Part shown: one piece after another, positions 6,392 to 26,563 of the stretch
Layout: each line of letters opens with the position of its first letter
Numbering within the stretch: the stretch's first letter is position 1
From: an uncultured bacterium
GTDB taxonomy: Bacteria > Vulcanimicrobiota > Xenobia > Xenobiales > Xenobiaceae
Assembly (NCBI GenBank): GCA_934636825.1
Contig: CAKUBG010000013.1
Coordinates: 1,234-65,233, forward strand
Direction: 5' to 3'
DNA length: 64,000 nt
Translations under genes and position numbers: made by a program
Notes under the pieces: model-generated
The model's database searches: none
What the model saw: only the letters and a program-made list of their open reading frames with translations
What the model was told of the DNA's origin: nothing

Positions 6392-6404
6392 TTGAGGTGT
6401 TTTT

Positions 6405-7844
6405 ATGCAGTTTTTTTCTGTCCCTAATTTAAAACGTACAGGCGTTTGGTTAGGAGCGTGCGGCCTTGTAGTCGGCGCTATTCTAATTGCTCGTGTCGAT
6501 TTTGTCGGAATGGCCTGTGCCGAGGGGACTACCCCGAAAAAACCTGCTGCTTCCGGTGAAACTCAGGACCAGTTTTCCGAGCTGGCCGTAGTAGACTTTG
6601 AAAAGTTGCTTAAAGATCGTCCCGATTATGAGCGCATAACTCAGCTTGATGAACAAATTCGTTTGCTGCAACAAGAGTTGGAATTTTTGCCTTTGGCAGA
6701 CCGCAAGCGTAAAGTAGATTCCGGACGCAAGCGTATGGAGCGCGAAGTTGAGAAAGCTCGCAATGAATTGCAAGCTGAATCGGCCCGCATAGGCAATGAA
6801 TTGAAGAGCTTTCGTAACAATCTGACCAAGCAACTTGAGCAAGAAAGCAAAGCTCTTAACGAGCATTATCAGAATGTCTTGCGTCAGCGAGTGGCAGCTT
6901 TAGCTCCTAAAGCTCCTCCTCAAGTGCCTGAAGATGTGCGTAAACGTATGGATAGCTTTTTGAGCGATTTGGCTGGAGTACGTCAACAGCGCATTTCTGC
7001 CAAGCGCTTGGAGCTGGAACGCATTATGCAAAACAATTTGGAAAGTGCTCGCGCTTCTATGGATGAGCGTTTAGCTGAGTATGACAGCTCTTTAATGCAA
7101 GAAAATCAAGAACAGCGCGTCAACTTACAATTGCAATTGCAAACTGCGGCCAATGCCGAAGAAGAATCGGCTATTCAGGATAAATTGGCTGCCCTCGGAG
7201 ATGCTGAGACTGCCAAAAAATCGGCCAAACGTGATGAACTTACGGCTGAATATAAGCGCCTGGAAGCTGATGAGCGTGCAAATGTAGCTTCTAAAATTAA
7301 AGCTTTTGAGACATCGCTTGATGAGGAGACCAAAGCTAAGGCTGCGGCCGAGCGGGATCGCCTTTTGAAAAATGTACAGGCGCCTTCTCCTAAGGTAAAT
7401 CAAGCTGAAGTTGAAGCTCAGATTGCCAAAATAAAGTCTACTATCAATGCTGAAATGGAAGCCAAAAAGGCCGAAATGACAGCTGCCATGCAAAGCAAAG
7501 CTGAAGAAGCTCAACGCAACATGGAGCAAAAGCAAGCTGCTTTAGAAAAACGTTTGCGAGCGACGCAGAAGCAATTGGAAGCTATGGTAAGCAATTCGTC
7601 CAAAGATGTCAGTGACGAAACGCGCAAGAAAATGGACGACCTTAAAGCCAAGATAGAAGACTTGCAAAAACAACGCCAAGAACTTTATGACAGTATGGCT
7701 AACGATTTGCGTGAAGTAGTCGCCAAAATCGCAGCTGAGCAAGAGGGGCAGCCGTCTGTGATAGGCTCTTATGTTGTCAATATTGATTGCTTGGATCTTA
7801 CCGACAAAACAATGCTTGCTTTGGAAAAAGAGGACCAACACTAG
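6405..7844 (+). CDS. Skp/OmpH-family protein, very long coiled-coil form (paralog 2)
   Basis: RBS GAGGTG. N-terminal TM helix. OmpH-like start (VVDFEKLLKDRPDYERI). About 350 aa of heptad-like E/K/Q/A-rich coiled coil. OmpH-like C-terminus. Confidence 0.6.
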   Translation: MQFFSVPNLKRTGVWLGACGLVVGAILIARVDFVGMACAEGTTPKKPAASGETQDQFSELAVVDFEKLLKDRPDYERITQLDEQIRLLQQELEFLPLADRKRKVDSGRKRMEREVEKARNELQAESARIGNELKSFRNNLTKQLEQESKALNEHYQNVLRQRVAALAPKAPPQVPEDVRKRMDSFLSDLAGVRQQRISAKRLELERIMQNNLESARASMDERLAEYDSSLMQENQEQRVNLQLQLQTAANAEEESAIQDKLAALGDAETAKKSAKRDELTAEYKRLEADERANVASKIKAFETSLDEETKAKAAAERDRLLKNVQAPSPKVNQAEVEAQIAKIKSTINAEMEAKKAEMTAAMQSKAEEAQRNMEQKQAALEKRLRATQKQLEAMVSNSSKDVSDETRKKMDDLKAKIEDLQKQRQELYDSMANDLREVVAKIAAEQEGQPSVIGSYVVNIDCLDLTDKTMLALEKEDQH

Positions 7845-7853
7845 GAGGTCGCG

Positions 7854-8411
7854 GTGAATAGAATTTTATGGTGCGGAGTGGTTATGACTGCGCTCACGGT
7901 CGGCTGCCTCTGTACGGCAGGTTGTACACCCAAGGAGAAAGTTGTCATTCGTACCGGCACTATCAACAGTACGGTTGTACTTCAGGAAGATGACAAATAT
8001 CAGGAATTGTCCCGCCAGTACTTCGCCGAGCGCATCAAGGCTAGCCAAGAAGTACAGCGTATAGTTAAAGAAAATTCCAACGCTGATGGCGTCGTCAGTG
8101 ATAAATCTGTTTATGATAAGCTCATGAAGATTCAGAGTGACGTTGAATCAAAATGGCAAAAACGCACTGCCGATTATATCGATGCCAAAATGAAAAGTAT
8201 GGAGAAAGCTGCTTCAGAAGTAGCTTTGGATAAGGAACTCGATATTGTTTTAATCGACTCCAACGATGTTCCAACTGTAGAGTATGGCGGTCACGACATT
8301 ACCGCTAATGTTCTGGCGGCTATGCCGGGATTTGCCGGAAATGCATCTTCTGAAGGCGAACAAAACAAAGGTGCCAAGACTGCGGAAAGTGGCTCTCAAG
8401 GCAGCAAGTAG
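7854..8411 (+). CDS. Skp/OmpH-family chaperone, lipoprotein-like (paralog 3)
   Basis: GTG start after GGAGGT. Signal peptide ending in Cys (LTVGCLCTAGC). Canonical ~160-aa OmpH body. Confidence 0.65.
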   Translation: MNRILWCGVVMTALTVGCLCTAGCTPKEKVVIRTGTINSTVVLQEDDKYQELSRQYFAERIKASQEVQRIVKENSNADGVVSDKSVYDKLMKIQSDVESKWQKRTADYIDAKMKSMEKAASEVALDKELDIVLIDSNDVPTVEYGGHDITANVLAAMPGFAGNASSEGEQNKGAKTAESGSQGSK

Positions 8412-8433
8412 AAAGAGCGGAGGGATAAACAAT

Positions 8434-8907
8434 TTGCAATATTCGAAGTTTGTACACTGCTTAGTTCTGACGGCTGTAAGTGCTATTCTGCTTTTGGGCG
8501 GTAGCGGTTGCGCTGAGCGTACATTAAAGGTTGGTGTTGTCAATACCGAGAGAATTATTAGAGAGAATCCTAAGTATATGGAGCTCAATGTTATTCTCTC
8601 CGACGAGCGCAGCAAGATCTATTCGCAAATTCCTAGCAATGTCAGCAGTATGTCTGTGGCTCAGAAAAAGGCCTTGCAAGAAAAGCTGGCCAAAGATGCT
8701 GCAGAGAGATCCAGCAAGTTTGATAAGCTCTACAATGAGAGTATGAAAGGTTTGCGGGAAGATATTAAAGCTCAAGCTTCCGAAGTGGCTCAAGACAAAG
8801 ATATAGATTTAGTTGTAGTTAACACTGTAAATTATCCTGTTGTGCTTTATACCAGCGGAGATAATATTACTCTGGATATTTTGCTGAAAATGGATGGCTC
8901 TAAATAA
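8434..8907 (+). CDS. Skp/OmpH-family chaperone, lipoprotein-like (paralog 4); start revised to TTG 8434
   Basis: GGAGGG RBS precedes the in-frame TTG. Signal peptide ending GGSGC. OmpH-like body (VGVVNTERIIRENPKY...). The ORF-track start at 8284 overlaps the upstream gene. Confidence 0.6.
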   Translation: MQYSKFVHCLVLTAVSAILLLGGSGCAERTLKVGVVNTERIIRENPKYMELNVILSDERSKIYSQIPSNVSSMSVAQKKALQEKLAKDAAERSSKFDKLYNESMKGLREDIKAQASEVAQDKDIDLVVVNTVNYPVVLYTSGDNITLDILLKMDGSK

Positions 8908-9621
8908 ATGGAAGAACAGTTTGTACATCCGAGTGCTTGCATAGACAGTTCCGCTTCTTTAGGTAAAGAGTGCAAAGTCGGAGCCATGGTCGTAATTGAA
9001 AGTGGAGCTAGAGTAGGCGACAGGGCTGAGATAGGCCCTAAAGCTTATATCGGTCGCAATGTTCGTATAGGTTCCGGAGCGATTATCGGCTGTGGGGCTG
9101 TGCTTATGGATGATACCGTTATCGGTGACAAAGCTGTTATTGAAGCAGGAGCAGTTTTAGGCATGGATGGTTTCGGCTATGTCTTTGACGGCCGGAGTCA
9201 TCGCAAGATCCCTCAAGTTGGCAATGTCGTTATTGGCGAGGGAGCTAAGATCGGTGCTTGTTCTTGTGTGGATAGAGCTGCTACAGCTTCTACTTTAATC
9301 GGAGACTATACTGAATTGGGGCATATGGTTATGGTAGGCCACAACAGTAAGGTCGGCAATCATTGTCGTATCGGCGACCAGAGTGGTTTGACCGGATCGT
9401 CTGTAGTAGGCAATAATTGCACCATCGGCTCTCAGTGCGGTATCGGTGTGCGTGTAGAGTTGGGAGATGGCTGTGTGCTTATGGATCGTTCTACAGCCAT
9501 GCGCAAGTATGAAGCCGGACAAGTTTTGGCCGGTAATCCCGGTCGTCCTGTGGCTGAAGTGCGTCGTGCCGAAGCTGCTTTTAACTTGCTTCCTAAGCTT
9601 TTAAAAGAGCATATGAAGTAA
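8908..9621 (+). CDS. LpxD-like left-handed beta-helix N-acyltransferase lacking the N-terminal uridine-binding domain
   Basis: 237 aa. Hexapeptide repeats and the LpxD-type core (GFGYVFDGRSHRKIPQVGNVVIGEGAKIGACSCVDRA). Sits in the canonical bamA-skp-lpxD position. ATG abuts the upstream stop. Confidence 0.7.
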   Translation: MEEQFVHPSACIDSSASLGKECKVGAMVVIESGARVGDRAEIGPKAYIGRNVRIGSGAIIGCGAVLMDDTVIGDKAVIEAGAVLGMDGFGYVFDGRSHRKIPQVGNVVIGEGAKIGACSCVDRAATASTLIGDYTELGHMVMVGHNSKVGNHCRIGDQSGLTGSSVVGNNCTIGSQCGIGVRVELGDGCVLMDRSTAMRKYEAGQVLAGNPGRPVAEVRRAEAAFNLLPKLLKEHMK

Positions 9622-9701: not shown

Positions 9702-9831
9702 CGTTAAATTGCCGTGCCTATAATGGGGGAAAATTTAGATATAAAGTTGCGGCATCGGGGGAAATAACAAATTGGGTTTGCTGTCTGTACTTGAAAACAG
9801 AGACAGCAAGTCTTATGGAGCTGAGTTTTTT

Positions 9832-11661
9832 ATGAAAGGTCATAAGCTTTTAGCCCTAGTGCTGGCTTTTGCCGCTTTTTATTTTTGTGCCCTTCAGGCT
9901 GCTTGGGCTGCTGATGTTGTTTTAGGTGGACAAGTTGTCTTTCGTATCAGCGACGAAGAGCAAGCGGAAAGAATTTCTGAGAAGATCGAAGCTATGTTGC
10001 AAAGGGGCGCTTCCTCTTCTTCAATTAAGGTAGTTCGCAAAGAAATTGCCGGAACGACAGACAAAAAAACTACTGAGGCTAGCGATAAAAATAACAATAA
10101 AGCCAAAAAGTCTGTGTATAAGATCTATTGGGGCAGTGAATTAATTATTGAAGTTAATGATGAAATTGCCAAACAAAATGGCTCTTCACCGGAGGCTTTG
10201 GCCAATCTTTGGGCTTCTAATATGCGCAATATCGTTGATATTGGCCTCTTAAATGTTGATACAGCTCGTGCTATTTTAGCTGTCAATGCCGAAAAAACCA
10301 TCTCAGCTACCGGCTTAGCTAACGGGCCGTTAATCGTAGAAGAAGCTGCCGGGGTCGTGGATATTGATGTCGATCAAGACAACGGATTGATAAAATTAAC
10401 TGGTAGAAGAGTAGGTAAATCTTCTCTTATTATCAGCAAAGGCGTAGCCTCGGTTACGGTATTTGTGCAAGTAAAAGACTGGGCAGGCAAATTGCCTCAG
10501 TCGGTTACTGTAGAAGTCAGCGGTACTCCGGCCCAGGCTGACGCCGTCTCTCAAGCTGTTATGCTTTCTATTGCGGCCAATACTTTTGTGCAACCAGGAT
10601 GTAGTGTCTATGTAGACGATACCAATTTCCACCCTGTGCCTGTACCTAAAGGCGATAGCATGCGCTTGAGCGTACCTGTAGGTATAAACGCTTCTGATGA
10701 CTATTTCGCTGTAAGAGGCGATGTAAATGTATTGATCCAAAATATTGACATACCTTATGTCGAACAAAATTTGCTTTTAGTGAGTAATCGTCCTGAAAGA
10801 GTTGATACTGACGGTGTGCTTATGAAATACAATTTCAAAAAGCGCGAACCTAGTCGCTTGATGTTTTCTCACCTTAATGCTTCGGCTAAAAATCGTTATT
10901 TATGGATCAACTTGGCTAATTTGAATGATGAGCCGGTAAAAATAGTAATTAGCAGAACTTCAGCCGGACCTGAACGCAGTGAAATCTACGTTGGACAAAC
11001 TGCTGCTAAGCGCTTCTTGGAAAATTTGGCTTGCCATTCCGGATATGTAATTACTTTGCCGCCCAATTCCGCTTTAGAATTAGCTTCTTATGTCATGCGT
11101 CCTGAAGCTTTGGTGAGTGGTTTTATAAACTTTCAAATTTTGGAAGGGCCTAGCGCTACTGTGGAAGTGCGCAGTGCCTTGAATCCAAATTGTAACGATG
11201 GACGCACGCTTCCGGAAATTGGTGCTCCTTTTAATCCTTTTAAGATCCATCCTCATGGAGTATTTGCTCAGCCTTATTTTGAAAATGAAGGTGAGTTTGT
11301 GGTTGGTGGCAGTCCTTTAACCTTCCGCTACGGAGAAAGTCCTTGGCTGATCGACTTCGAGACTGGTTTGCCCAATACTGGAAATTTTGGTGTTCTTTAT
11401 AAATCTTTGGTTGAACTGAAGAACCCGACCAGGCGTACCAAAACGGTTGGCCTTTACTTTACGCCTCTGTCAGGGCCAGGTGGAGCCAATTTTTTGATCG
11501 GTGATTCTGTTTATCAAGCTATTTTCCGCAAAAAAGGCGATGAAGTGCTGGTAGCCAAAATTGAGTTGTCTCCGGAATCGAGTAGTACAATAGAAATAAT
11601 TACTTTGCCGGAAGCGACTTCTTGCTATCCTGCGCAATATGAATTGCGCGAAATAGACTGA
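9832..11661 (+). CDS. Secreted hypothetical protein (609 aa) embedded in the lipid A cluster; start revised to ATG 9832
   Basis: GGAG RBS precedes the ATG. Signal peptide KLLALVLAFAAFYFCALQAAWA. No recognisable catalytic motifs. Does not end in an aromatic residue, so it is not an obvious outer-membrane barrel. Confidence 0.55.
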   Translation: MKGHKLLALVLAFAAFYFCALQAAWAADVVLGGQVVFRISDEEQAERISEKIEAMLQRGASSSSIKVVRKEIAGTTDKKTTEASDKNNNKAKKSVYKIYWGSELIIEVNDEIAKQNGSSPEALANLWASNMRNIVDIGLLNVDTARAILAVNAEKTISATGLANGPLIVEEAAGVVDIDVDQDNGLIKLTGRRVGKSSLIISKGVASVTVFVQVKDWAGKLPQSVTVEVSGTPAQADAVSQAVMLSIAANTFVQPGCSVYVDDTNFHPVPVPKGDSMRLSVPVGINASDDYFAVRGDVNVLIQNIDIPYVEQNLLLVSNRPERVDTDGVLMKYNFKKREPSRLMFSHLNASAKNRYLWINLANLNDEPVKIVISRTSAGPERSEIYVGQTAAKRFLENLACHSGYVITLPPNSALELASYVMRPEALVSGFINFQILEGPSATVEVRSALNPNCNDGRTLPEIGAPFNPFKIHPHGVFAQPYFENEGEFVVGGSPLTFRYGESPWLIDFETGLPNTGNFGVLYKSLVELKNPTRRTKTVGLYFTPLSGPGGANFLIGDSVYQAIFRKKGDEVLVAKIELSPESSSTIEIITLPEATSCYPAQYELREID

Positions 11662-11852
11662 GTTTTATTCAGACTCACATTTGAGTAAGGTCTGTCTATA
11701 CCGATACGGTTGGGCAGACTTTATTTTTTGTCGTTTGATAAATGTGTGCTTAGGTTGCTTCGGGCCAAAAATGGAGGAATAGCCAATTTTATATAAAAAA
11801 GTTGGCGGAGTTTTTAATCAATTATATTACAGTCGTTGGGGAGAACATTTCC

Positions 11853-12686
11853 ATGTGCAGAGCGCAGCGTACTTTAGCTGAAGAGATCTCTTTTGAGGGA
11901 GTGGGTATCCATACCGGCAAGCTCGGTCACTTAACTATAAAACCTGCTTCTGTCGATCATGGAATCGTTTTTTTGAGTGGCGGGGAATATATTCCGGCTA
12001 CTTATGAGTATGTTGTCTCTACTAAACGTTCTACTTCTTTAGGAAAAGGCCAAGCTGTAGTCGGCACGGTAGAACACTTGATGGCTGCTTTAGGTGGCTT
12101 GTCCATAGATAATGCGTTAATAGAAATCGATGGGCCAGAAGTGCCTATTTTAGACGGCTCTGCTTTGCCTTTTTGCCAAGCTATAGAAAAGGCTGGTATT
12201 GTAAATCAGAAAAATAGCGAAGTAGAAGATTATTATATTGAAGAGCCCATTTTTGTTGCTGAAGGTGAAGGGTTGGTTTTAGCCATGCCTGACTCGCAGT
12301 ACAACTTGGAGGGAGCCGTTAGCTACGCCAGTCCGCAAGTTGGCAATCAGCGCTTCCGCTACTGCGGTTATGACAACTTTGTTACTCATGTCGCTCCCGC
12401 TCGCACTTTCGGTTTTTGGTCAGAAGTAAAAAGTTTGTTGGAAAATGGCCTGGGGCAGGGTGGCGATCTTTCCAACGCTTTGATTTATGATCGTCCCGGT
12501 TTTGATGTGGAAAGCGCTCAACGTTTCGTCAACGAGCCTGTGCGCCATAAAGTTTTGGATTTAGCTGGCGATCTTTGTTTGCTTGGTCGTCCTTTGCGGG
12601 CTTTTGTCTTAGCTGTTCGTGCCGGTCATAAATTGCATGTGGAATTCGTTCGTAAAGTCGCTGAGGAGATGCATAAAAATGCTTAA
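11853..12686 (+). CDS. lpxC: UDP-3-O-acyl-N-acetylglucosamine deacetylase LpxC; start revised
   Basis: RBS GGGGAGA. LpxC N-terminus (RAQRTLAEEISFEGVGIHTGK). Family-typical length. Confidence 0.8.
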   Translation: MCRAQRTLAEEISFEGVGIHTGKLGHLTIKPASVDHGIVFLSGGEYIPATYEYVVSTKRSTSLGKGQAVVGTVEHLMAALGGLSIDNALIEIDGPEVPILDGSALPFCQAIEKAGIVNQKNSEVEDYYIEEPIFVAEGEGLVLAMPDSQYNLEGAVSYASPQVGNQRFRYCGYDNFVTHVAPARTFGFWSEVKSLLENGLGQGGDLSNALIYDRPGFDVESAQRFVNEPVRHKVLDLAGDLCLLGRPLRAFVLAVRAGHKLHVEFVRKVAEEMHKNA

Positions 12687-13104
12687 TATCAAAGATATCT
12701 TACATAGGACTCCCTACAAGAGCCCCATGCTTTTTGTTGATGTTGTCACTGAACTCAACTTCCCGGAAATCTCAGGCTATAAAAATATAACTATGGCTGA
12801 GCCCCATTTCGAAGGCCATTTTCCCGGCAATCCCATTATGCCAGGTGTTTTGCAAATGGAAGCTTTAGCTCAGCTTTGTTGGTTGCTTTATGTCGGTAAT
12901 GACAATGCCCCCATAAAAGCTTCTACTTTAGATTTAGTTGGGGCTAAAAAATTCAAATTTAGAACTCAAGTAGTGCCGGGGGATCGCCTCGAACTTTATG
13001 CCAAAGAAATAGAACGTGATGACAAAAATGTTACTTTGTCTGTACGCGCTCGTGTAGGAGAAAATACCGCTTGCGAAGGTGTGCTTACTTTCGCTTGGCA
13101 TTAG
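12679..13104 (+). CDS. fabZ: 3-hydroxyacyl-ACP dehydratase FabZ; start revised
   Basis: RBS GAGGAG. Hot-dog-fold motif FEGHFPGNPIMPGVLQMEALAQ. Overlaps the lpxC stop by 8 nt. Not fused to lpxC. Confidence 0.8.
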   Translation: MLNIKDILHRTPYKSPMLFVDVVTELNFPEISGYKNITMAEPHFEGHFPGNPIMPGVLQMEALAQLCWLLYVGNDNAPIKASTLDLVGAKKFKFRTQVVPGDRLELYAKEIERDDKNVTLSVRARVGENTACEGVLTFAWH

Positions 13105-13218
13105 AAGCGGTCTTTGTCGCTCGTTTGTTGTAGGAAACTGCCTTTTAGCGGGCGAAATAAGCGCATTTTCACGTGTTAGCTTTTAACGGATACGGAATTG
13201 TTGGGAGGAAGCATAAGT

Positions 13219-14157
13219 ATGAAGCCAATTAGAGTTGGCGTAGTCGGTATCGGCAGTATGGGTAGGAACCATGCTCGAGTGTGTTCTGAGCTGCCTCAGA
13301 TCGAATTGGCAGGTATTGTAGATCTTGATGAAGTCAAGGTCGCTCCTTTAGCTGGGCAATACGGTACGAAATATTATAAAGATTATCAAAGCCTTTATGG
13401 AAAAATTGACGGCGTAGTTATCGTTTCTCCTACTCCGCTCCACTACCAAATAGCTCAAGATTTTTTAGAGCATGGCATACATGTTTTAGTTGAAAAACCC
13501 ATTACTGTGGAAGTGGAACAAGCCAAGCGTTTGGTGGCTTTGGCCAAAGAGAAGAACTTAATTCTGCAAGTCGGCCATTTGGAACGCTTCAATCCTGCTA
13601 TTCTTAAGCTTAAAGAAATGGTGGGCACTCCCGTTCTTATCGAATGTCATCGCCTGTCTGGCCCTACGACCCGCAACTTAGATGTTGGTATTATTTGGGA
13701 TTTAATGATCCACGATTTTGATATCCTTTTGAGTTTGTATAAGTCTCCGGCGGAAGAAATTCATGCCATGGGCGCTTCTATCTACTCTAAATTTGAGGAT
13801 GTGGCTCATGTACAAATCCGTTTTGAGTGTGGCGCTGTAGCTAGTTTGGTAGCCAGCCGCAACTCTGGTGAGCGTAAGCGTTGCTTAAAAATTACCGAGA
13901 ATACCGGGCGTGTATTCTCCTTGGATTTCATCAATCAAACTTTGACAATTTCGCGTCCAGGGCCGGACGGTCGCCCTCTGGAACCTGAATTTGTCAATAT
14001 CGAAAAAGAAGAACCTCTCCGTTTGGAACTTAGTAACTTTGCGGATTGTGTTGCCAACCATAAAGAGCCTGTCGTTTCTGGAGAAGACGGTGAGCGCGCT
14101 TTGGAGTTGGCTGTGCATGTATTGGAAAATATGCATAGGATTAAGATTGCCGAGTAG
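13219..14157 (+). CDS. Gfo/Idh/MocA-family NAD-dependent oxidoreductase; GnnA-like candidate
   Basis: RBS GGGAGG. Rossmann N-terminus (IRVGVVGIGSMGRNHARV). Located between fabZ and lpxA. Confidence 0.75.
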   Translation: MKPIRVGVVGIGSMGRNHARVCSELPQIELAGIVDLDEVKVAPLAGQYGTKYYKDYQSLYGKIDGVVIVSPTPLHYQIAQDFLEHGIHVLVEKPITVEVEQAKRLVALAKEKNLILQVGHLERFNPAILKLKEMVGTPVLIECHRLSGPTTRNLDVGIIWDLMIHDFDILLSLYKSPAEEIHAMGASIYSKFEDVAHVQIRFECGAVASLVASRNSGERKRCLKITENTGRVFSLDFINQTLTISRPGPDGRPLEPEFVNIEKEEPLRLELSNFADCVANHKEPVVSGEDGERALELAVHVLENMHRIKIAE

Positions 14158-14205: not shown

Positions 14206-15015
14206 GTGATTCATCCCAGCGCTATAGTACACCCCAAGGCACGCATAGGCGAAGGTGTAGAAATCGGCCCCTTTTCCATTATCGGTGAGAATGTCGAAAT
14301 TGGTGACGGTACCAAAATTATGTCGTCTGTAGTGATTGATGGTTGGACGACTATAGGTAAAAACAATCGTATCTATCCTGGCGTGACTATTGGCTTAGCT
14401 CCTCAAGATTTTAGCTATAAAGGGCAGCGCTCTTTTGTAACTATTGGCGACAATAACGATTTTCGCGAATATGTAACTATACACAGAGCTGCCGATGAAG
14501 ATGGACTTACTTCGGTAGGCAGTGGCAATCTCTTAATGGCCAATGTTCATATCGCTCACAATTGTCGTATAGGAAATCAGGTGACTATGGCCAACTACGC
14601 CGGCTTAGCTGGTCATACTGTTGTTGACGATCAAGCTGTTTTGGGTGGTTTGGTTGGTATTCATCAGCATACTCGTATCGGTCGTCTTTGTATGGTAGGC
14701 GGTTGCTCTAAGATCAATAAAGATTTACCTCCTTTTAGTATTGTTGACGGCAATCCGTGCCGTTTATTTAGTATGAACTTTAGAGGTATGCGCCGTCGCG
14801 ACATATCTAAAGAAAGCCGCTTGGCTATACAAAAAGCTATTTTTATCCTTGGCTCCATGGGCTTAACTATTAGTGCCGCTATAGAACGCATTGATAGTGA
14901 ATTAGAGCACACTCCTGAGGTTGAGCAATTCTTAGACTTCTTGCGCGCCCCTTCGCGCATGGGAGTGCTCAATAAAGCCAGCAATGTGGGGGCCAGAACC
15001 CACAATAACGCCTAG
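14206..15015 (+). CDS. lpxA: UDP-N-acetylglucosamine O-acyltransferase LpxA
   Basis: GTG start after GAGAGGAG. Hexapeptide repeats (MIHPSAIVHPKARIGEGVEIGPFSIIGENVEIG). LpxA-like C-terminal helical domain. Confidence 0.8.
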   Translation: MIHPSAIVHPKARIGEGVEIGPFSIIGENVEIGDGTKIMSSVVIDGWTTIGKNNRIYPGVTIGLAPQDFSYKGQRSFVTIGDNNDFREYVTIHRAADEDGLTSVGSGNLLMANVHIAHNCRIGNQVTMANYAGLAGHTVVDDQAVLGGLVGIHQHTRIGRLCMVGGCSKINKDLPPFSIVDGNPCRLFSMNFRGMRRRDISKESRLAIQKAIFILGSMGLTISAAIERIDSELEHTPEVEQFLDFLRAPSRMGVLNKASNVGARTHNNA

Positions 15016-17479
15016 TTGGTGCATTTTGGCCAATAACCAGCATCAGCAATTATCCGCCTGCCCGCAGCTTACGGTTGCTATAATCGCTGTAGAGCCTTCC
15101 GGAGATCTTCACGGAGGAAATTTGGCTAAGGCTCTGCTGGCAATTAACCCCAACTTGAAGTTTGTCGGTGTAGGCGGTTCGCATATGGCCGCGTCGGGAG
15201 TGAAGCTGTGGTTAAAAACCACTGATATGGCTATCATCGGTCCCGGCGGGGCTCTTTTGTGTTTGCACAAGTATATATATCACTACTTATATGTGCGCTC
15301 TCATTTGCTTGAAGCTAAGCCCCATCTGACTATTTTGATAGATTGTCCGGCTGTAAATATGCGTTATGCTGGTCTTTTAACCAGATATGGCTACAATTCT
15401 GTCTATTATTTCCCACCTTCAGCCTGGACAACGAGCGAAGCTCGCTTGCGTCAAATTTTTAGTCGCACTGACAGAGTTATTTGCACTTTTTTAAGCAATG
15501 CCGAAAATTACCGTCGTTTCGGTATGGAAGTTGATTTTTTCGGCCATCCCTTGTTGGATATGCCCGAATTGTCTATATCTCCTGAAGAGGCCAAGCGTAT
15601 TCTTGGTCTATCCGGAGAAAATATTTTAGCTATTTTGCCTGGCAGTCGGACGCCGGAAATAAAGTATCTTTTACCTACTTTTTTGAATATCGCTGAAAAA
15701 TTGCATGCAGAAAAGCCTGATTTGCAAGTTTTGATTCCGTGCGCTACCGAAAACTTGCACAGCCAAATCACCGAGATAATGGGAGATAGGTTCCCTTATG
15801 TACGCCTTCTTGATGGTCAGTCTCGTTTGGCTCTTTTATCTAGTCGAGCCGCTCTCATGAGCTCCGGTACGGCCAGTTTAGAAGCTGCTATTTTGGGCAC
15901 TCCTATGGTTTTAGCCTATAAGTTGTGCCCATTCGATGCTGCTGTGGGACGTTTTTTGCTTTGGGCCCATATTTTAAAAATAGATCATATCGGCTTGCCA
16001 AGTTTGGTAGTAGGTAAACGCATTGTTCCTGAATTTATTCAAGATGAAGTTAATGCCGAAAATATACTTCCACATTTGCGCAATTTTATGTCTGATACTC
16101 CTGAACGCCGTCAAATAAAACAAGATCTTTTGGATATGAAAAATTCTATGGGATCTCCGGGAGTTGTTGATAAAATAGCGGCTTCACTTTACGAGCGCAT
16201 TAAAAATAATGCTGAGCGCCGTCAAAAAGAGCCGTTTGATATTGTCATTACTTCTAATTCTCCTGGTGAAGTTGCTGCTTGGGTACGTCGCACTGTGGCC
16301 CATTTGGAAATAGCCAATCAAGGATTGTTTAGAGTAATAGTTGCTCTAGTTCCTTGCCCTTATGCTTCTGGGGCTGAAGCGGAAGTAGCTGCCTCTTTAC
16401 CCGGTGTGTCTGTTGTTTTGAAGCCTAGTCAGACTTTGCGCTTAATGCTTGGTTTATTTAACGATTTTAAATTTCGGCAGCGCGGCGTAGTTGTTTTCTT
16501 AGGCGGTGACTTACTCCATGCCAAAATTTTAGCTTGGCGTTTACGATACAAATCGGTGGCTTATGCCGTTAGATATAATTACTTTTTGCCTTATTTTGAC
16601 AAAGTAGCTGCTTCGGATACTGCTTTAGCTAAGGAGTTGGAAGAGGCTGGAATAAAGGAAGTTGTCAGTATTGGCAATTTGAGCATTGATGGTGTTTTTT
16701 CCGAAGTAGATCGCGAGTCTGCTTTGCAAAATAAAGAAAAGCGTGGCTCCTGGAAGATCGGTATTTTTCCGGGATCGCGTTTCTTGCACACTAAGATAGC
16801 TTTGGGAGTCTTTTTACGGGTAGCTGCTCTCATAAAGACGCGTTATCCTCAAGTAGATTTCGTACTCTCAGTCTCTCCTTTTGTTTCTAAAGCCAGATTA
16901 GAATCTGCTCTTTACCATCCTATAAGTTTGGGATTGCCTATAGCTAAAGGAAAGTTGGTAAGATCTGATTGTATTTTGGTAGATTGTCCCCATGAAGCTG
17001 AAGGTACAGCTGGACGTAGTTTTGAGGTAGAAGTGCTTTGGGGCCATCCTTACCAGGCTATTGCTGAAATTGATATGGCTCTTACTATTCCCGGAACTAA
17101 TACCGGAGAATTGGGAAGTTGCGGAAAACCGATGGTAGTGGGGCTGTCAGCTGATGCCTCTTTACCAAGAGGCGGAATCGGTGGTCTCTTAGAAAATGCG
17201 CCTCTTCTTTCTAAGATAAAACGTTACTTGCGTTTGCGCTCCTATGCTCGCCATGGTTTTGCTGCTATACCAAATCGTATCGCTTCACGTTTAGTCGTTC
17301 CTGAAGTTTTGGTTAAAAAAGATACTTCTGTTTTGGCTAAGCCTATTTTTGAATGGATTGAAGATCCTAAAAAATATGCGCAAACGGTTGAAGATCTGAA
17401 AAAGACTATGGGAACTACCGAAGGGGCCGGCCAACGCATGGCCGAGCTTATTTTAACAGCGGTGGCTTTAGAACAATGA
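14984..17479 (+). CDS. lpxB: Lipid-A-disaccharide synthase LpxB fused to a second ~430-aa LpxB-related domain
   Basis: LpxB N-terminal signature (TVAIIAVEPSGDLHGGNLAKAL). 831 aa, versus ~380 aa for stand-alone LpxB. Exact start uncertain: ATG 14984 overlaps lpxA by 32 nt and a TTG at 15026 is an alternative. Confidence 0.7.
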   Translation: MWGPEPTITPSWCILANNQHQQLSACPQLTVAIIAVEPSGDLHGGNLAKALLAINPNLKFVGVGGSHMAASGVKLWLKTTDMAIIGPGGALLCLHKYIYHYLYVRSHLLEAKPHLTILIDCPAVNMRYAGLLTRYGYNSVYYFPPSAWTTSEARLRQIFSRTDRVICTFLSNAENYRRFGMEVDFFGHPLLDMPELSISPEEAKRILGLSGENILAILPGSRTPEIKYLLPTFLNIAEKLHAEKPDLQVLIPCATENLHSQITEIMGDRFPYVRLLDGQSRLALLSSRAALMSSGTASLEAAILGTPMVLAYKLCPFDAAVGRFLLWAHILKIDHIGLPSLVVGKRIVPEFIQDEVNAENILPHLRNFMSDTPERRQIKQDLLDMKNSMGSPGVVDKIAASLYERIKNNAERRQKEPFDIVITSNSPGEVAAWVRRTVAHLEIANQGLFRVIVALVPCPYASGAEAEVAASLPGVSVVLKPSQTLRLMLGLFNDFKFRQRGVVVFLGGDLLHAKILAWRLRYKSVAYAVRYNYFLPYFDKVAASDTALAKELEEAGIKEVVSIGNLSIDGVFSEVDRESALQNKEKRGSWKIGIFPGSRFLHTKIALGVFLRVAALIKTRYPQVDFVLSVSPFVSKARLESALYHPISLGLPIAKGKLVRSDCILVDCPHEAEGTAGRSFEVEVLWGHPYQAIAEIDMALTIPGTNTGELGSCGKPMVVGLSADASLPRGGIGGLLENAPLLSKIKRYLRLRSYARHGFAAIPNRIASRLVVPEVLVKKDTSVLAKPIFEWIEDPKKYAQTVEDLKKTMGTTEGAGQRMAELILTAVALEQ

Positions 17480-18141
17480 AAATTCCTGATAAAAACAAAA
17501 AGATGGCTCCGCCTTTTATTTTTAAATGGCGCGGTCTCATAATGGCTATGGTTACCGCAATTATTTTGATAGTAGCTCACCCAACTGTAGGGTCGTGTTG
17601 CTGGGGAATAGCGCTGGCTATTTGGGGCGAAATGTTACGCTCTTGGGCTTTAGGATGGACTGGAGAGCATACGCGCAGCCAAGAGCTGAAAGCTTCGTTT
17701 TTGGTAACTAGTGGCCCTTATAAATATATACGCAACCCGCTTTATTTGGGAAATATCCTAACCGGGTGCGGCGTTATGGTTGCCTCGTGTGGTGCCCTTT
17801 CGTGGGTGGCCAGCTTAGCTACATGGCTTTTGGGATCTTTCTCTTTGTATGTAGTTTATGCTTCTTGCATAATTTCTGAAGAGGCTTTTCTGGCTGTCCG
17901 TTTTGGCGATATTTTTTTTAACTACAAAGCATGCACACCGGCGATCCTACCCAGTTGGCATTCCATCCCCGAATTTGTAAGAAGCTTTTTTTGCCCTAAT
18001 TGTGGAGCAAATAGCGATAAAGTCTATGAAGGAGAATCCTTCTCCTGGAAGTCGCTTCGTTTCGAGTATAGCACTTGGGGATGGCTGGTTTTTGTATGGC
18101 TGTTTCTTTTTATGAAAGCTGTTGGTAAGCTTCCGCTATAA
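17476..18141 (+). CDS. ICMT/Ste14-family membrane methyltransferase; LmtA-like candidate
   Basis: Multi-TM protein carrying the ICMT motif (YKYIRNPLYLGNIL). ATG overlaps the lpxB stop (ATGA). Confidence 0.65.
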   Translation: MKIPDKNKKMAPPFIFKWRGLIMAMVTAIILIVAHPTVGSCCWGIALAIWGEMLRSWALGWTGEHTRSQELKASFLVTSGPYKYIRNPLYLGNILTGCGVMVASCGALSWVASLATWLLGSFSLYVVYASCIISEEAFLAVRFGDIFFNYKACTPAILPSWHSIPEFVRSFFCPNCGANSDKVYEGESFSWKSLRFEYSTWGWLVFVWLFLFMKAVGKLPL

Positions 18142-19285
18142 TTGCAGCCATTCGCTCAGAGCCTCCTGGAGGCCCGAGTCTCTTGCGTCCGACTTCTGCA
18201 CGCCTTTGTCTTTCAGCTTTGTCTTGGATAAGGTTACATAAAGTTTCGACTATATCTGCATCGCGATCTTCGCTGACAATAAGTGAATCTCCAAGTAAGC
18301 CCTTTTGACGTGCTCTGTACCATTTTAAGTGGCTCATACCTCCCGGCTCGTAAGCTACTACTGGAATGCCCCAACCGGCGGCTTGCTCGTGGGCTGTTCC
18401 GGCTAGCCCCAAAGCTACTTGACTATATTGCAACACATCAGCTAAGTGGCCTTTTATTAAAAAAAAGCGGGCTCGAGGAGTAGTAGCTTCGTCTTTATAA
18501 GTTAAAGTATGCCAGCCGGGATAAGGGCAATCGCCCAAAGTAAAGTCAGAGCAGGCTTGAGCTAATTTTTCGGTATCTATAGAGGGGGCTACAGCTATAA
18601 AAGCACATATGTCCTTACCCAAACGTTTGGCTAACATTTGGCTCAATTTGAGTAAACGAGGCAACACTTGGTAGGTAGCTTTTCTGCTACCGGGGAAAAG
18701 AGCTAAGCCTATTTCTTTAGCTTCATCTAATGAAAAGTCCAAATCTTGGGGGATTAAACCGTCCATCATGGCATTGCCTACCCAAGCTGCTTTTACACCT
18801 TTTTGGCGTAGGCTTTCGGCAGTGGGTTCATCTCTAACTATGGAATGTACCTGGAAAGTTCTGAGGATGAAAGCTTCCAAAGTAGAATAAGGATGATGAT
18901 AATCCGATTTTGCCGTGCCTATAAAAGTAATGGGGCGTATGCCGGAAAGTATAGCCAATATAACCGGCCATAAATCACCTACAGCTACAATTTGATCAAA
19001 TTTCGAACGTTGACGGCGTAACCAAGCAATTTGCTTAAGCGTTAAGGAAAATAAACCTCCGCTTATGTCTTTCCATAAATTACGCCAATCTTCCTGAATA
19101 AGCCCTCCGCTAGGCATAAGTTGTCTGGGGCCCACGACTGGAGCTAAGCCCTCATAAGCAGAACCTTCTCCAACCAGAGGCATAGCTTCTCGGGGGAGCG
19201 ATTCCGGCAAGTCGGCTATAATCTGGCTGGCAATAGAATCTTCGCCTGCTCCGTTGGATATAAATAAGACACGATGAGAAGCCAT
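18110..19285 (-). CDS. LpxB-related glycosyltransferase-like protein (lipid-A-disaccharide-synthase-related family)
   Basis: 391 aa. N-terminal motif VLFISNGAGEDSIAS parallels DIVITSNSPGEVAAW at the start of the second domain of the lpxB fusion. Last gene of the minus-strand lipid A operon. Confidence 0.55.
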   Translation of the reverse strand: MASHRVLFISNGAGEDSIASQIIADLPESLPREAMPLVGEGSAYEGLAPVVGPRQLMPSGGLIQEDWRNLWKDISGGLFSLTLKQIAWLRRQRSKFDQIVAVGDLWPVILAILSGIRPITFIGTAKSDYHHPYSTLEAFILRTFQVHSIVRDEPTAESLRQKGVKAAWVGNAMMDGLIPQDLDFSLDEAKEIGLALFPGSRKATYQVLPRLLKLSQMLAKRLGKDICAFIAVAPSIDTEKLAQACSDFTLGDCPYPGWHTLTYKDEATTPRARFFLIKGHLADVLQYSQVALGLAGTAHEQAAGWGIPVVAYEPGGMSHLKWYRARQKGLLGDSLIVSEDRDADIVETLCNLIQDKAERQRRAEVGRKRLGPPGGSERMAAIIAEAYQQLS

Positions 19286-19303: not shown

Positions 19304-20149
19304 TTAGCGTAAATTTAGTAATTGATATTCGCTCAATTCTGGATGCTCGAAATTATAATCTAATTTGCCAATATAGTGAGCCCAAGAACCAGTTTGGACT
19401 ATAAAATTGTCGTTGATTTTTATCGGCTCGGCAAGCACGGTGTGACTGTGACCGCCCAGAATCCAGGTGCCTTTGGGCAATTGGGCTGCCAAAACTTTAT
19501 CTCTTTCCAGTCCCAAGTGGCTTAAAACGATTAGGCGCAATGGCTTATCTAACAACTTAGAACAACGTTCGGCTAAAAGTGGCAAAACCGTCTCAGCTTC
19601 AAAAAATCTGAAGCCGAAAATCTTTTCCCAAATGGCATTGTGAGGGTATTGGACAGGAACCGCAGCCAAGAGAAGCAGTGGGTAGTGTTTTGACCAGTTT
19701 TTGTTATACAGTGACAAAGCTGAAACCCAGCGTTTGGAAGATAAGTCTCGCCACAATTTCGCTTTACGCCAGCTACTGTCTTGGCAATTTACTTCCGGAA
19801 CTGAGTTCAGTTGTTTTATCAATTGTTCGTCAGTTAATTTTCCGTCTTGTCTAATGTCGACAAGATTGCTGCAAAGCAAAGGAAAAGAGCGCTGTGCAGC
19901 TCTTTTGTCCAAAATGCGACGCTGATAATTAAACTCTCTATTGCCCATAGCCATAGAGGCACAAAAAATTGAGCCCATTTTTTCTAAATTTGGCTCATAA
20001 TTTTTCCACACTGTATTGGAGCCAAGCAAAGCATCGCCACTGTCAAAATATAGAGCTTGACCTTGGGCTAATGATTGCTTGGCATTGGCTTTTAACCAAT
20101 CTAGGGCTTCTGCGTGCCCATGCATGTCATTTGTATGATAGATGAGCAC
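19304..20149 (-). CDS. Calcineurin-like metallophosphoesterase resembling the UshA/5'-nucleotidase N-terminal domain
   Basis: Metal-ligand motifs HTNDMHGH, FDSGDALLGSN and GGHSHT. 281 aa, with no C-terminal nucleotidase domain. Confidence 0.7.
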   Translation of the reverse strand: MLIYHTNDMHGHAEALDWLKANAKQSLAQGQALYFDSGDALLGSNTVWKNYEPNLEKMGSIFCASMAMGNREFNYQRRILDKRAAQRSFPLLCSNLVDIRQDGKLTDEQLIKQLNSVPEVNCQDSSWRKAKLWRDLSSKRWVSALSLYNKNWSKHYPLLLLAAVPVQYPHNAIWEKIFGFRFFEAETVLPLLAERCSKLLDKPLRLIVLSHLGLERDKVLAAQLPKGTWILGGHSHTVLAEPIKINDNFIVQTGSWAHYIGKLDYNFEHPELSEYQLLNLR

Positions 20150-20737: not shown

Positions 20738-21703
20738 TCAGTCCTTCGGAGAAAGTTTAGCCAGCTGTTGAATCTGTTTCCAATGCTTGAGAGGAAGCTG
20801 GCGCATGGCTGTTTGGCGCATGGAAGTTTTGTGGGTATCAATGGGATCGCCAGACCAAATTGCTTGGCCTGCTGGTACATCCTTGTCGACGCGAGAACGG
20901 GCTGCTACTGTGGCAAAATCTCCGATCTGGCGGCCTTCTTCCACTAAGCATTGACCGGCTGTAATAGATAATTTACCTAAACTTACATTTTGTTGTAAGC
21001 AATTTTGAGAAATGACAATAGCTAGGGGAGCGATTTTTGCGCCTTTTTCAAAGCAAGCTAAATTATCTATACGGACCCCGTCTTGAATAAACGCGTGGTC
21101 GCCGATAAAGCAGCGAGCACCTATTTCTATATCGTTCCCCAAAACGGAATCGTCTTCAATAATGGTAAGTGGGCCTACCAAACTCTTTGTGCCCAATTTT
21201 ACGTTTGCACCCACAGAAACGCCTGGCATAAGACGCGTATTGGCTCCTATAGAGCTATTGCTGCCGATACTGGCATGGGCCATAATTTGGCAATTGTCAG
21301 CAACTATAGCATTGTCGCCGATAATAGCAAAAGGGCCAATATATGCTGTTGGTGCAATTTGAGCCGAGTCGCTGACTTGGGCATTAGGATGAATGCCTGG
21401 CTCGTGCAAATGCGTAGGGTAGAATAATCCCAAAAGTATAGCAAAGGCAATGCGGGCATTTTTTACCTTAATAGCAGGTATCTCCGTATCTAGCTCTTCA
21501 GGGATGATGACTGCGGAAAAACCGAGAGATTCAGCTTCTTTCAGGCCGTTCTCTTTTTCTGCAAAAGTTAAAGCCTGGCTAAGAACGTGCTGGGAAGCTG
21601 CATCTAATCCCGTAACAACATTAATAGTGTGGGAAGCGTATTCTGGATTGTTCAGGCTGCCTTGCAAAAGTTCAGCCAATTCTCCTAAAGTTTTTACCAC
21701 CAT
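20738..21703 (-). CDS. lpxD: UDP-3-O-acylglucosamine N-acyltransferase LpxD (full length)
   Basis: N-terminal uridine-binding-like domain followed by hexapeptide repeats (PTAYIGPFAIIGDNAIVADNCQIMAHASIGSNSSIG) and a C-terminal helical region. 10-nt overlap with the upstream TldD-like gene. Confidence 0.8.
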   Translation of the reverse strand: MVVKTLGELAELLQGSLNNPEYASHTINVVTGLDAASQHVLSQALTFAEKENGLKEAESLGFSAVIIPEELDTEIPAIKVKNARIAFAILLGLFYPTHLHEPGIHPNAQVSDSAQIAPTAYIGPFAIIGDNAIVADNCQIMAHASIGSNSSIGANTRLMPGVSVGANVKLGTKSLVGPLTIIEDDSVLGNDIEIGARCFIGDHAFIQDGVRIDNLACFEKGAKIAPLAIVISQNCLQQNVSLGKLSITAGQCLVEEGRQIGDFATVAARSRVDKDVPAGQAIWSGDPIDTHKTSMRQTAMRQLPLKHWKQIQQLAKLSPKD

Positions 21704-25479: not shown

Positions 25480-25876
25480 TTGACTACATCCTTTTTTTTA
25501 CCTATCCGGAGGCAATTTTCTGATTTTCTGAACTTTGCTAAAAAGCGCAAAAGAAATCGGTTCTGTCGACTAGAATTCCGCTGCTGGCAAAGCGCATGTG
25601 TGAGCGGAAAAACTAATTCCGAAATCGAAAAGCATAAGGGTGTGCATATTAGACAAAAAGCGACTATCACCTTTTGCCTAGGTCGATTTCGACATATTGA
25701 AAGATTGAATTTAGGCAGCCTAGTTGATGGACTGGCCGCAACATATATTGATAGAAGTTCAATCCTCTGAATGGCAAGGAAAAAAAATGTTGTTTTTTGT
25801 ATATGATAAAGTGTGGGGGCGAAGAAAAAGGTTTCGCTATAGGGCGTTGGCTCGGAGAGATGCTGGAGGAAAATAT

Positions 25877-26563
25877 ATGGTTAGATTCAGAGGACAACTT
25901 TGGATATGGCTGGCAATGTTGTTTACGATGTGTGGTTGTGGCGGAGGCGAAACTACTACAAACAATGCAGAGCAATATGCCAAAACTCCTGCAGCAGCCC
26001 TTTCCGAACAGTCTGAAAGCCAACAGATTGGAAACGTTCAAAAGCAAAGCCAGGCTTCGGGTGAAACAGGCAAGCAAGCTGAAATCGTAAAAGATAAAGA
26101 AGGGACTTCTGCTACTTCCATGTCCAACGATCAGGGAGTCGATTCTATATCTATTGCGGCTAAAGGCGAATCGCCTTGGAGTTTAAAAGCCAGCCGAATC
26201 GACTACGATGATGTAAGTAAAAAAGCTCGAGCTTCTTCTATTACTTGGAATTTACTTGATAAAGAGGGACATTCTCTTCTTCAGCTTCAGGGCGATGCTG
26301 CTGTAGTTAATACAGAAACTCAGGGCTTGGCTTTTGAAGGGCCTGTTCATGCTGTCGGTCCCAAGGGTGAAAAGATTGTTTGTAACAAATTGATTTGGGA
26401 CAGCAAGTCCAGAAAGTTGCGCGGCTCGCATGGAGTAAAGGTAGTTCGTGAAGGATCTACTATGACTGGGAAAAATATGGTGGCTTCTCCGGACCTCAAG
26501 CATGTTGAAGTTGAAGGCGATGTGCGTGTTTATTTCAATTCCGGTTTAGAATCGAACCAATAA
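25877..26563 (+). CDS. LptC/LptA-family (OstA-like beta-jellyroll) LPS transport protein; start revised
   Basis: Strong RBS GGAGGAAAATAT precedes the ATG. N-terminal hydrophobic anchor. Immediately upstream of lptB. C-terminal region of alternating hydrophobic beta strands. Confidence 0.55.
   Translation: MVRFRGQLWIWLAMLFTMCGCGGGETTTNNAEQYAKTPAAALSEQSESQQIGNVQKQSQASGETGKQAEIVKDKEGTSATSMSNDQGVDSISIAAKGESPWSLKASRIDYDDVSKKARASSITWNLLDKEGHSLLQLQGDAAVVNTETQGLAFEGPVHAVGPKGEKIVCNKLIWDSKSRKLRGSHGVKVVREGSTMTGKNMVASPDLKHVEVEGDVRVYFNSGLESNQ

Follow-up and report, generated by a model that had tools for sequence, protein, structure and literature searches.

The 831-amino-acid (aa) open reading frame (ORF) analyzed here lies in a 64,000-nucleotide stretch of DNA, hereafter the window, from an uncultured bacterium of the Xenobiaceae (Vulcanimicrobiota; Xenobia; Xenobiales; GenBank assembly GCA_934636825.1, contig CAKUBG010000013.1, positions 1,234 to 65,233 of the forward strand), and joins LpxB to a second, LpxB-like domain. 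The protein is a genuine, conserved, clade-specific fusion of two neighboring lipid A genes. Its second half belongs to a family of proteins, referred to here as the C-domain family, for which neither Pfam nor NCBIfam holds a dedicated model and whose members carry the database names 'lipid-A-disaccharide synthase' or 'hypothetical protein'. The fusion unites LpxB with the product of the gene that comes next in related bacteria, and we propose that this second half would be an active uridine diphosphate (UDP)-sugar glycosyltransferase with the lipid A disaccharide as its substrate, at the step right after LpxB, a reading that is held with middling confidence.

Both the 831-aa ORF and a convergent 391-aa ORF, described together in the initial annotation of this DNA, are present in the window (Table 1). 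The N-terminal half had been called a normal LpxB over residues ~1-400, and the profile searches agree, since residues 29-400 score 263.4 bits against the lpxB model TIGR00215, above its equivalog cut-off of 190.25, and 258 bits against PF02684 (cut-off 22.6), and match the E. coli LpxB structure 5w8n with an E-value of 1e-51. The initial ~26 residues, which overlap the end of lpxA, are of low confidence. Active-site residues were mapped from the E. coli LpxB structure paper (PMC5785501) via alignments, and local profiles were built from 54 LpxB, 77 C-domain, and 52 TIGR03492 sequences, all from related loci. The E. coli residues E15, S17, D98, P198-R201, T277, and E281 correspond to E37, S39, D120, P219-R222, T296, and E300 of the window protein; across the 54 LpxB orthologues, the columns of E15, S17, D98, P198-R201, and E281 are invariant or near-invariant, and that of T277 is occupied by Ser (28) or Thr (26). 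By these measures the N-terminal half is a bona fide LpxB and a predicted lipid A disaccharide synthase.

The second half (residues 406-831, which begin ...EPFDIVITSNSPGEVAAW, as described in the initial annotation) is a marginal match to existing models. Taken alone, it scores 24.5 bits against PF02684 (cut-off 22.6), which it barely passes via two short stretches, 28.9 bits against TIGR03492 (cut-off 219.2), and 27.7 bits against TIGR00215, below the equivalog cut-off of 190. At the level of profiles, hhalign aligns the C-domain family with LpxB over 351 columns (probability 99.9%, E 2.8e-37, score 281), with TIGR03492 over 273 columns of the C-terminal part only (99.6%, E 1.7e-24, score 187), and TIGR03492 with LpxB over 324 columns (99.2%, E 1.5e-19); the C-domain family profile also matches E. 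coli LpxB itself (E 3.4e-19). Direct pairwise E-values among the three window sequences are all weak (5e-6, 2e-7, and 0.006), blastp aligning the C-half and the 391-aa ORF over 185 aa at 23% identity (E 5e-6), a weak but real match. AlphaFold2 modeling of the C-domain, with the family alignment as input, yields two Rossmann domains (predicted local distance difference test score (pLDDT) 90.9; predicted template modeling score (pTM) 0.89), and a Foldseek search with this model matches the GT-B folds of UDP-N-acetylglucosamine (UDP-GlcNAc) 2-epimerases, LpxB, and MurG; a Foldseek search with the full-length fusion model returned nothing beyond the C-domain search. On the strength of profiles and model, the second half is thus a complete GT-B domain distantly related to LpxB, which sustains the original description of LpxB joined to a second LpxB-related GT-B domain, and the hhalign values contradict the alternative that the two segments resemble neither each other nor LpxB-like folds. 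In the Foldseek ranking of the C-domain model, the top position (E 9.7e-11) was taken by an accessory subunit of the respiratory complex I of Tetrahymena (8b6f chain A0; 7tgh, 8gym chain T1), ahead of the epimerase, LpxB, and MurG.

When the C-half was searched against a database, more than 200 homologues emerged, mostly free-standing proteins of 380-430 aa, the best of which is 48% identical, and an exhaustive profile search assigned 496 representative clusters (50% identity) to the C-domain family at E <= 1e-30. Its members come from Vulcanimicrobiota/Eremiobacterota, Armatimonadota, diderm Bacillota, Sericytochromatia, and Aerophobetes, and share the invariant motifs NSPGE, PCPYAxGxE, FLGGD, PGSR, SPF, IPGTNTxE, and PNxxAxxxxxPE. 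With LpxB (GT19; TIGR00215; PF02684; 5W8N/5W8X), the C-half has in common the GT-B fold, the PGSR pyrophosphate motif, the equivalents of E15, T277, E281, and N316, and the C-terminal LPN...PE helix region. It differs from LpxB in that NSPGE replaces GExSGD, an extra PCPYAxGxE motif is present, the D98 column holds Gly with an acidic residue at +2, and a beta-hairpin (~240-275) and a loop (~316-331; both in domain numbering) form two insertions. Judged by these comparisons, the C-domain is a third, previously uncharacterized GT19-like family within a known enzyme superfamily and not a new kind of system.

The initial annotation took the 391-aa ORF for a free-standing copy of the same domain, a claim that fails, as this ORF scores 274.8 bits against TIGR03492, its residues 7-385 covering profile positions 1-394 of 396, versus 28.9 bits for the C-domain. 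With full TIGR03492 membership of the 391-aa ORF, and with a C-domain that scores so low there and stands nearer to LpxB (281) than to TIGR03492 (187), the locus, as far as profiles can tell, holds three distinct GT19-like lineages instead of LpxB and a duplicated domain. The companion claim, that the convergent ORF is also LpxB-related, is confirmed by the hhalign alignment of TIGR03492 with LpxB. Genuine free-standing versions of the C-domain occur in other genomes, as a gene directly downstream of lpxB. A special kinship of the C-domain with TIGR03492, suggested by an N-terminal cue (SNSPGE versus SNGAGE), was considered and rejected, because hhalign leaves the N-terminal 100 residues unaligned and LpxB scores higher. 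Like the C-domain, TIGR03492 is a remote LpxB relative that occurs in lipid A clusters and has an SN..GE-type N-terminal loop; unlike the C-domain, whose partners are lpxB and a gene for an integral-membrane methyltransferase of the ICMT type, it is partnered by a metallophosphoesterase. At the column of the ribose-binding Glu281 of LpxB, TIGR03492 proteins have Gln in 52 of 52 cases, where LpxB and the C-domain have Glu; this invariant Gln hints that TIGR03492 proteins may handle the nucleotide differently or use another donor. A PDB sequence search gave no useful match for the TIGR03492 ORF or the ICMT-type ORF.

Literature searches on the C-domain family or TIGR03492 found no paper dealing with either, the sole match being a passing gene name in Deinococcus. 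Deinococcus is not known to make lipid A, and if it makes none, LpxB-related families may serve other glycolipids too. The gene in question is that of a 'lipid A disaccharide synthase-related protein', reported to be encoded by Deinococcus radiodurans (PMC4507557).

The active-site columns of the C-domain family are strongly conserved across the 77 sequences. E24, aligned to E15 of LpxB, is Glu in all 77; the PGSR motif is retained with Arg in 67 and Lys in 10 (G192-S193-R194 in the window domain); the equivalent of T277 (T300 in the window domain) is Thr in 74 and Ser in three; the equivalent of the ribose-binding E281 (E304) is Glu in 76 of 77; and that of N316 is Asn in 77 of 77. Such retention of the UDP-binding residues is the pattern expected of an active UDP-sugar enzyme and not of a decayed paralogue. 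A non-catalytic paralogue would have a model in E. coli LpxB, which is obligately dimeric and swaps its C-terminal segments (PMC5785501): the C-domain could be a partner in a pseudo-heterodimer resembling the LpxB homodimer with its C-terminal swap, or a scaffold that tethers LpxB to the methyltransferase, and fusion and translational coupling would suit such a 1:1 complex, as would the Gly in the D98 column. We nevertheless consider a non-catalytic role quite unlikely. Dead paralogues normally lose their UDP-binding and leaving-group residues, whereas the G-S-R, T277, and E281 equivalents are invariant or nearly so in 77 divergent members; moreover, the invariant acceptor-domain motifs PCPYAxGxE and NSPGE suggest a conserved binding site, and fusions of C-domains to GT2 glycosyltransferases, described below, suit catalysis within a glycosylation series.

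The fusion itself is documented by its recurrence. In a scan at one genome per species, 78 loci encoding the C-domain family were found, and LpxB and the C-domain form a single ORF in 11 independent assemblies from various hosts and studies (loci L004-L012, L016, and L029), with C-domain identities of 49-97%; searching proteins with the entire 831-aa sequence gave 17 clusters that carry the fusion, with lengths of 754-831 aa and identities of 36-92%. At the junction, the full-length AlphaFold2 model has one helix (residues 394-415) followed by a strand (418-424), which is the first strand of the second domain, the whole block having a pLDDT of 85-93. In unfused relatives, stop and start codons overlap or abut at this position (GTGA, TTGA, TGATG, TAAATG), a place that is taken in the fusion by a conserved, in-frame helical linker of ~15 residues. 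The initial annotation had allowed for an assembly fusion of two genes across a missed stop, and the 1-4 nt overlap in the nearest unfused relatives means that one indel could indeed join lpxB to the next gene; yet an assembly or sequencing artefact, be it a missed stop or a frameshift error, has a practically negligible probability, given that the same architecture recurs in the 11 independently assembled genomes and the 17 protein clusters, that the conserved linker stands where the overlap would be, and that both alternative frames at the junction are stop-rich, i.e., closed.

Among close relatives, the two halves are about equally conserved (84-97% and 88-97%). In one fused cluster (P0121), the C-half shares 50-54% identity with unfused proteins from another clade and only 36% with the gut clade, which indicates a separate fusion event, so that the fusion arose at least twice. 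The nearest relatives of the window (97-78% identity) are gut and rumen metagenome-assembled genomes (MAGs) labeled UBP9, 'Candidatus Bruticola', or, wrongly, 'Riflebacteria', and Bruticola is placed in the class Xenobia of the phylum Vulcanimicrobiota (Eremiobacterota). The Xenobia-type cluster is also seen at high identity in MAGs labeled Riflebacteria, Burkholderiales, Selenomonadaceae, or Aneurinibacillus (e.g., L004, L013, L019, L031, L035, L044, and L045); these labels are probably taxonomic mislabels, or the contigs are mis-binned.

The order of genes around the C-domain is conserved as well. A series of hexapeptide acyltransferase, ~600-aa protein, lpxC, fabZ, GnnA-like dehydrogenase, lpxA, lpxB, C-domain gene, and ICMT-type methyltransferase is common to Vulcanimicrobiota and Armatimonadota and is seen in some Bacillota. 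The C-domain gene is directly preceded by lpxB in 53 of 71 loci and directly followed by the ICMT gene in 43 of 75, and in the window the start of the ICMT-type gene overlaps the stop codon of the fusion (ATGA). Further fusions occur: the C-domain is joined C-terminally to an ICMT domain in 14 protein clusters and to a GT2 glycosyltransferase, in both orders, in two (P0238 and P0258). The GT2-C-domain protein P0238 has as neighbors a gene of the GT9 heptosyltransferase family, genes resembling ArnT and ArnC, and an MsbA-like ABC transporter. In Capillibacterium (L049), the C-domain gene stands between GT2 and O-antigen-ligase genes, beside TIGR03492 and an MsbA-like transporter and upstream of lpxC-fabZ-lpxA-lpxI. 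Where the C-domain gene is away from lpxB and the ICMT gene (L049, 4933-12553; L083, 1918-10220), it adjoins or is fused to GT2, with MsbA-like, O-antigen-ligase, GT9, and ArnT-like genes nearby.

The ICMT-type protein invites comparison with LmtA of Leptospira, the ICMT-family lipid A 1-phosphate methyltransferase (TIGR04571), with which it shares the membrane methyltransferase family and the setting of a lipid A operon with a GnnA-like gene. The lipid A backbone of Leptospira is built of 2,3-diamino-2,3-dideoxyglucose (GlcN3N). In the window and in 39 related loci, a GnnA-like gene is kept between fabZ and lpxA, which suggests a predicted GlcN3N lipid A backbone here too; within the cluster, no aminotransferase of the GnnB type turned up. 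The ICMT-type protein differs from LmtA in its score of 40.4 bits against TIGR04571 (cut-off 325), by which it is not a member, and in being joined to the C-domain family in the 14 clusters mentioned; we know of no fusion to this family for LmtA.

The GnnA-like operon gene, which implies a pool of 2,3-diamino sugar, lends some substance to a reading of the C-domain as a second lipid A disaccharide synthase, that is, an LpxB isozyme for GlcN3N-type or differently acylated substrates, or one that adds a third acylated glucosamine from UDP-2,3-diacylglucosamine. LpxB is the nearest relative in the profile comparison, and some Bacillota and Sericytochromatia loci have a C-domain gene with no lpxB within 10 kb. 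We regard an isozyme as unlikely all the same, in view of the canonical and apparently intact LpxB that nearly always stands alongside where flanks exist (the 53 of 71 loci above), the strong divergence of the acceptor-side N-terminal domain, with other invariant motifs and two family-specific insertions, and the score of 27.7 bits against the LpxB equivalog cut-off of 190.

A glycosyltransferase that works directly after LpxB would accommodate these contexts as follows. We infer that the second half is an inverting glycosyltransferase at the cytoplasmic face of the inner membrane, where it would take the tetra-acylated disaccharide from the N-half and add a sugar from a UDP-sugar. The likeliest site of addition would be the 6'-OH of the distal glucosamine, which is chemically equivalent to the acceptor hydroxyl of LpxB and is the site of 3-deoxy-D-manno-oct-2-ulosonic acid (Kdo) attachment in the classical pathway. 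The resulting product would next be methylated by the ICMT-type enzyme, at the 1-phosphate, in the manner of LmtA, or at a carboxylate. Fusion would fix a 1:1 stoichiometry and allow the intermediate to be handed over, with a shorter path for a very hydrophobic molecule. The TIGR03492 protein and the UshA-like phosphoesterase encoded on the other strand may form a separate module of the same pathway. The linkage of the C-domain to lpxB, ICMT, and GT2 genes, together with the fusions, fits the earlier suggestion that these domains are candidates for downstream steps of core-lipid A assembly.

In this role the C-domain would be a functional analogue of WaaA (KdtA; GT30, GT-B), to which it has no sequence relationship. 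WaaA is a peripheral-membrane GT-B enzyme that puts the first core sugar on the 6' position of the lipid A disaccharide; its donor is CMP-Kdo, whereas the site retained in the C-domain is of the UDP type. In keeping with the initial annotation, which had recognized no WaaA/KdtA, LpxK, or KdsB in the window, Pfam scans of all window ORFs of at least 150 aa gave no match for LpxK, WaaA, or KdsB. Lineages with a shortened pathway have been described: Cyanobacteria and Dictyoglomi have LpxA, LpxC, LpxD, and LpxB only, with lipopolysaccharide that lacks Kdo and phosphate (PMC3087551). The phylum has a single cultured member, Vulcanimicrobium alpinus, a Gram-negative bacterium whose fatty acids include 3-hydroxy iso-C13/C14 species (PMC9758169), and the paper describing it, with its supplements, contains no analysis of lpx genes.

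Several points weigh against a glycosyltransferase acting directly after LpxB. The column of D98, the residue predicted to serve LpxB as catalytic base, holds an invariant Gly in the C-domain family, and the invariant acidic residue (Asp in 63 and Glu in 14 of 77) is placed by the alignment two positions later. The full-length AlphaFold2 model has a pTM of just 0.69, so that its mutual placement of the two halves is tentative. Certain Bacillota and Sericytochromatia loci lack lpxB within 10 kb of the C-domain gene, and there the C-domain could have an LpxB-independent role or could replace LpxB. Acceptor, donor, and regiochemistry are assigned purely by inference. The missing late steps, which count in favor of such a transferase, are documented for neighborhoods of ~20 kb and not for whole genomes: phmmer searches with E. 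coli LpxK, WaaA, and LpxH, their sequences entered by hand, found none of them among the 7,635 ORFs of the window and 81 loci; as a positive control, E. coli LpxB, entered in the same way and its numbering checked against PMC5785501, matched 70 loci.

The convergent pair of genes bears on the step before LpxB. The best named relatives of the metallophosphoesterase are the N-terminal domain of UshA, a UDP-sugar hydrolase, and 5'-nucleotidases. TIGR03492 occurs within 10 kb of a C-domain gene in 57 of 81 loci, and a UshA-like metallophosphoesterase lies directly upstream of TIGR03492 in 40 of these 57. The 40 loci with the metallophosphoesterase (within L001-L051) and the 13 with LpxI (L045, L049, L052, L053, L055, L058, L059, L061, L064, L066, L072, L074, and L076) have no locus in common, a mutual exclusion that looks like non-orthologous displacement, and from its distribution the phosphoesterase may be a candidate for a fourth type of UDP-2,3-diacylglucosamine hydrolase. 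The GT-B group of the UDP-GlcNAc 2-epimerases has hydrolyzing members, and epimerases of this kind are among the closest folds to the C-domain, which could accordingly be imagined as a hydrolyzing GT-B enzyme that transfers the sugar of UDP-2,3-diacylglucosamine to water, yielding a phosphate-free acceptor for LpxB in place of the LpxH/LpxI product and, in the end, 1-dephospho lipid A. Fusion to LpxB would channel the acceptor, and lipid A of the cyanobacterial type is devoid of phosphate (PMC3087551). We hold this to be very improbable: the UshA-like phosphoesterase, mutually exclusive with LpxI, is the better candidate hydrolase, the C-domain gene is still present in LpxI-containing loci, and a 1-phosphate, if present, would more readily account for the close linkage with an LmtA-like methyltransferase.

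The coordinates of the fusion and of the other features of the window are collected in Table 1. By their predicted functions, the lipid A genes sit in an outer-membrane biogenesis island that also includes BamA, BamB-like, OmpH/Skp-like, and Lpt genes. The 237-aa hexapeptide acyltransferase is conserved at the head of the cluster, and most Vulcanimicrobiota loci keep the 629-aa protein (39-96% identity) directly upstream of lpxC, with a 28% match in the Chloroflexota-labeled locus L028. The mechanically called ORFs of lpxC and fabZ overlap by 68 nt in the window (12619-12686), and the likely fabZ start (MLNIKD...) overlaps lpxC by a few bases; lpxC and fabZ form a single ORF in the Armatimonadota locus L020 (5655-6929) and in L028 (4517-5851). 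Scans of the window for Rfam families and tRNAs gave no match.

Table 1. Location of the fusion, its parts, and other features in the window, with the matches that identify them.
Feature	Position (nt)	Strand	Remarks
LpxB + second GT-B domain fusion ORF	14984..17479	+	831 aa, ATG start, continuous
LpxB half of fusion (residues 1-405; LpxB domain ~29-400)	14984..16198	+	TIGR00215, PF02684, PDB 5w8n
Junction/linker (residues ~394-417), ...SLYERIKNNAERRQKEPF...	16163..16234	+	In frame; predicted helix
Second GT-B domain (residues 418-831), uncharacterized LpxB-like C-domain family	16235..17479	+	AlphaFold2, Foldseek, profile comparison
ICMT/PEMT-family integral-membrane methyltransferase	17476..18141	+	221 aa; PF04140 32.4 bits (cut-off 24), PF04191 28.2 bits (cut-off 25)
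TIGR03492 'lipid-A-disaccharide synthase-related protein'	18110..19285	-	391 aa; 274.8 bits (cut-off 219.2)
Calcineurin-like metallophosphoesterase, UshA N-domain-like	19304..20149	-	281 aa; PF00149 29.5 bits (cut-off 21.5)
lpxD	20738..21703	-	NF002060 158 bits, TIGR01853 140 bits (both below cut-offs); Hexapep and LpxD N-terminal domains; syntenic
Hexapeptide-repeat acyltransferase	8908-9621	+	237 aa; 25-30% identical to LpxA; additional to lpxA, lpxD
Protein of no assigned function	9772-11661	+	629 aa; sub-threshold DUF3370 match
lpxC	11802-12686	+	Upstream operon
fabZ	12619-13104	+	Upstream operon
GnnA-like Gfo/Idh/MocA oxidoreductase	13198-14157	+	UDP-GlcNAc 3-dehydrogenase model 270 bits, below cut-off 450
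lpxA	14206-15015	+	Upstream operon
BamB-like beta-propeller	108-1553	-	
BamA	2066-5113		
Three OmpH/Skp-like genes	5390-8907		
Protein with ~6 tandem Pro/Gln-rich units of ~23 residues each (PRPMQPGYPPQQQGxAQPGRxPQ), then TPR-like region and transmembrane segment	23830-25479	-	549 aa
LptC	25724-26563		
LptB	26582-27415		
LptF/G	27425-28555		

How lipid A and core are completed in bacteria without LpxH, LpxK, and WaaA, such as cyanobacteria and many outer-membrane Terrabacteria, has been a question since the pathway-distribution map (PMC3087551), and the locus offers concrete candidates for these late steps in outer-membrane Terrabacteria. Gene order and three kinds of fusion tie an unnamed LpxB-like family to LpxB, a membrane methyltransferase, and GT2 enzymes, a connection that is masked in databases, where the fusion is labeled simply 'lipid-A-disaccharide synthase' and the second enzyme goes unseen. 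The carriers are gut and rumen Xenobia of humans, primates, and ruminants, and their lipid A chemistry bears on host sensing.

More broadly, and as a tentative proposal that we consider rather unlikely, the block of LpxB, LpxB-like, and ICMT-type proteins, together with the pair of UshA-like phosphoesterase and TIGR03492, might constitute the second half of lipid A-core assembly, so far missing, as a Kdo-independent route in 'four-enzyme' (LpxA/C/D/B-only) diderm Terrabacteria. If this were true, it would concern Vulcanimicrobiota, Armatimonadota, diderm Bacillota, and the cyanobacterial relatives: a phosphoesterase other than LpxH, LpxI, or LpxG would make lipid X, two LpxB paralogues would replace LpxK and WaaA and put the first sugars straight on the disaccharide without Kdo, and a membrane methyltransferase would cap a phosphate or a carboxylate.

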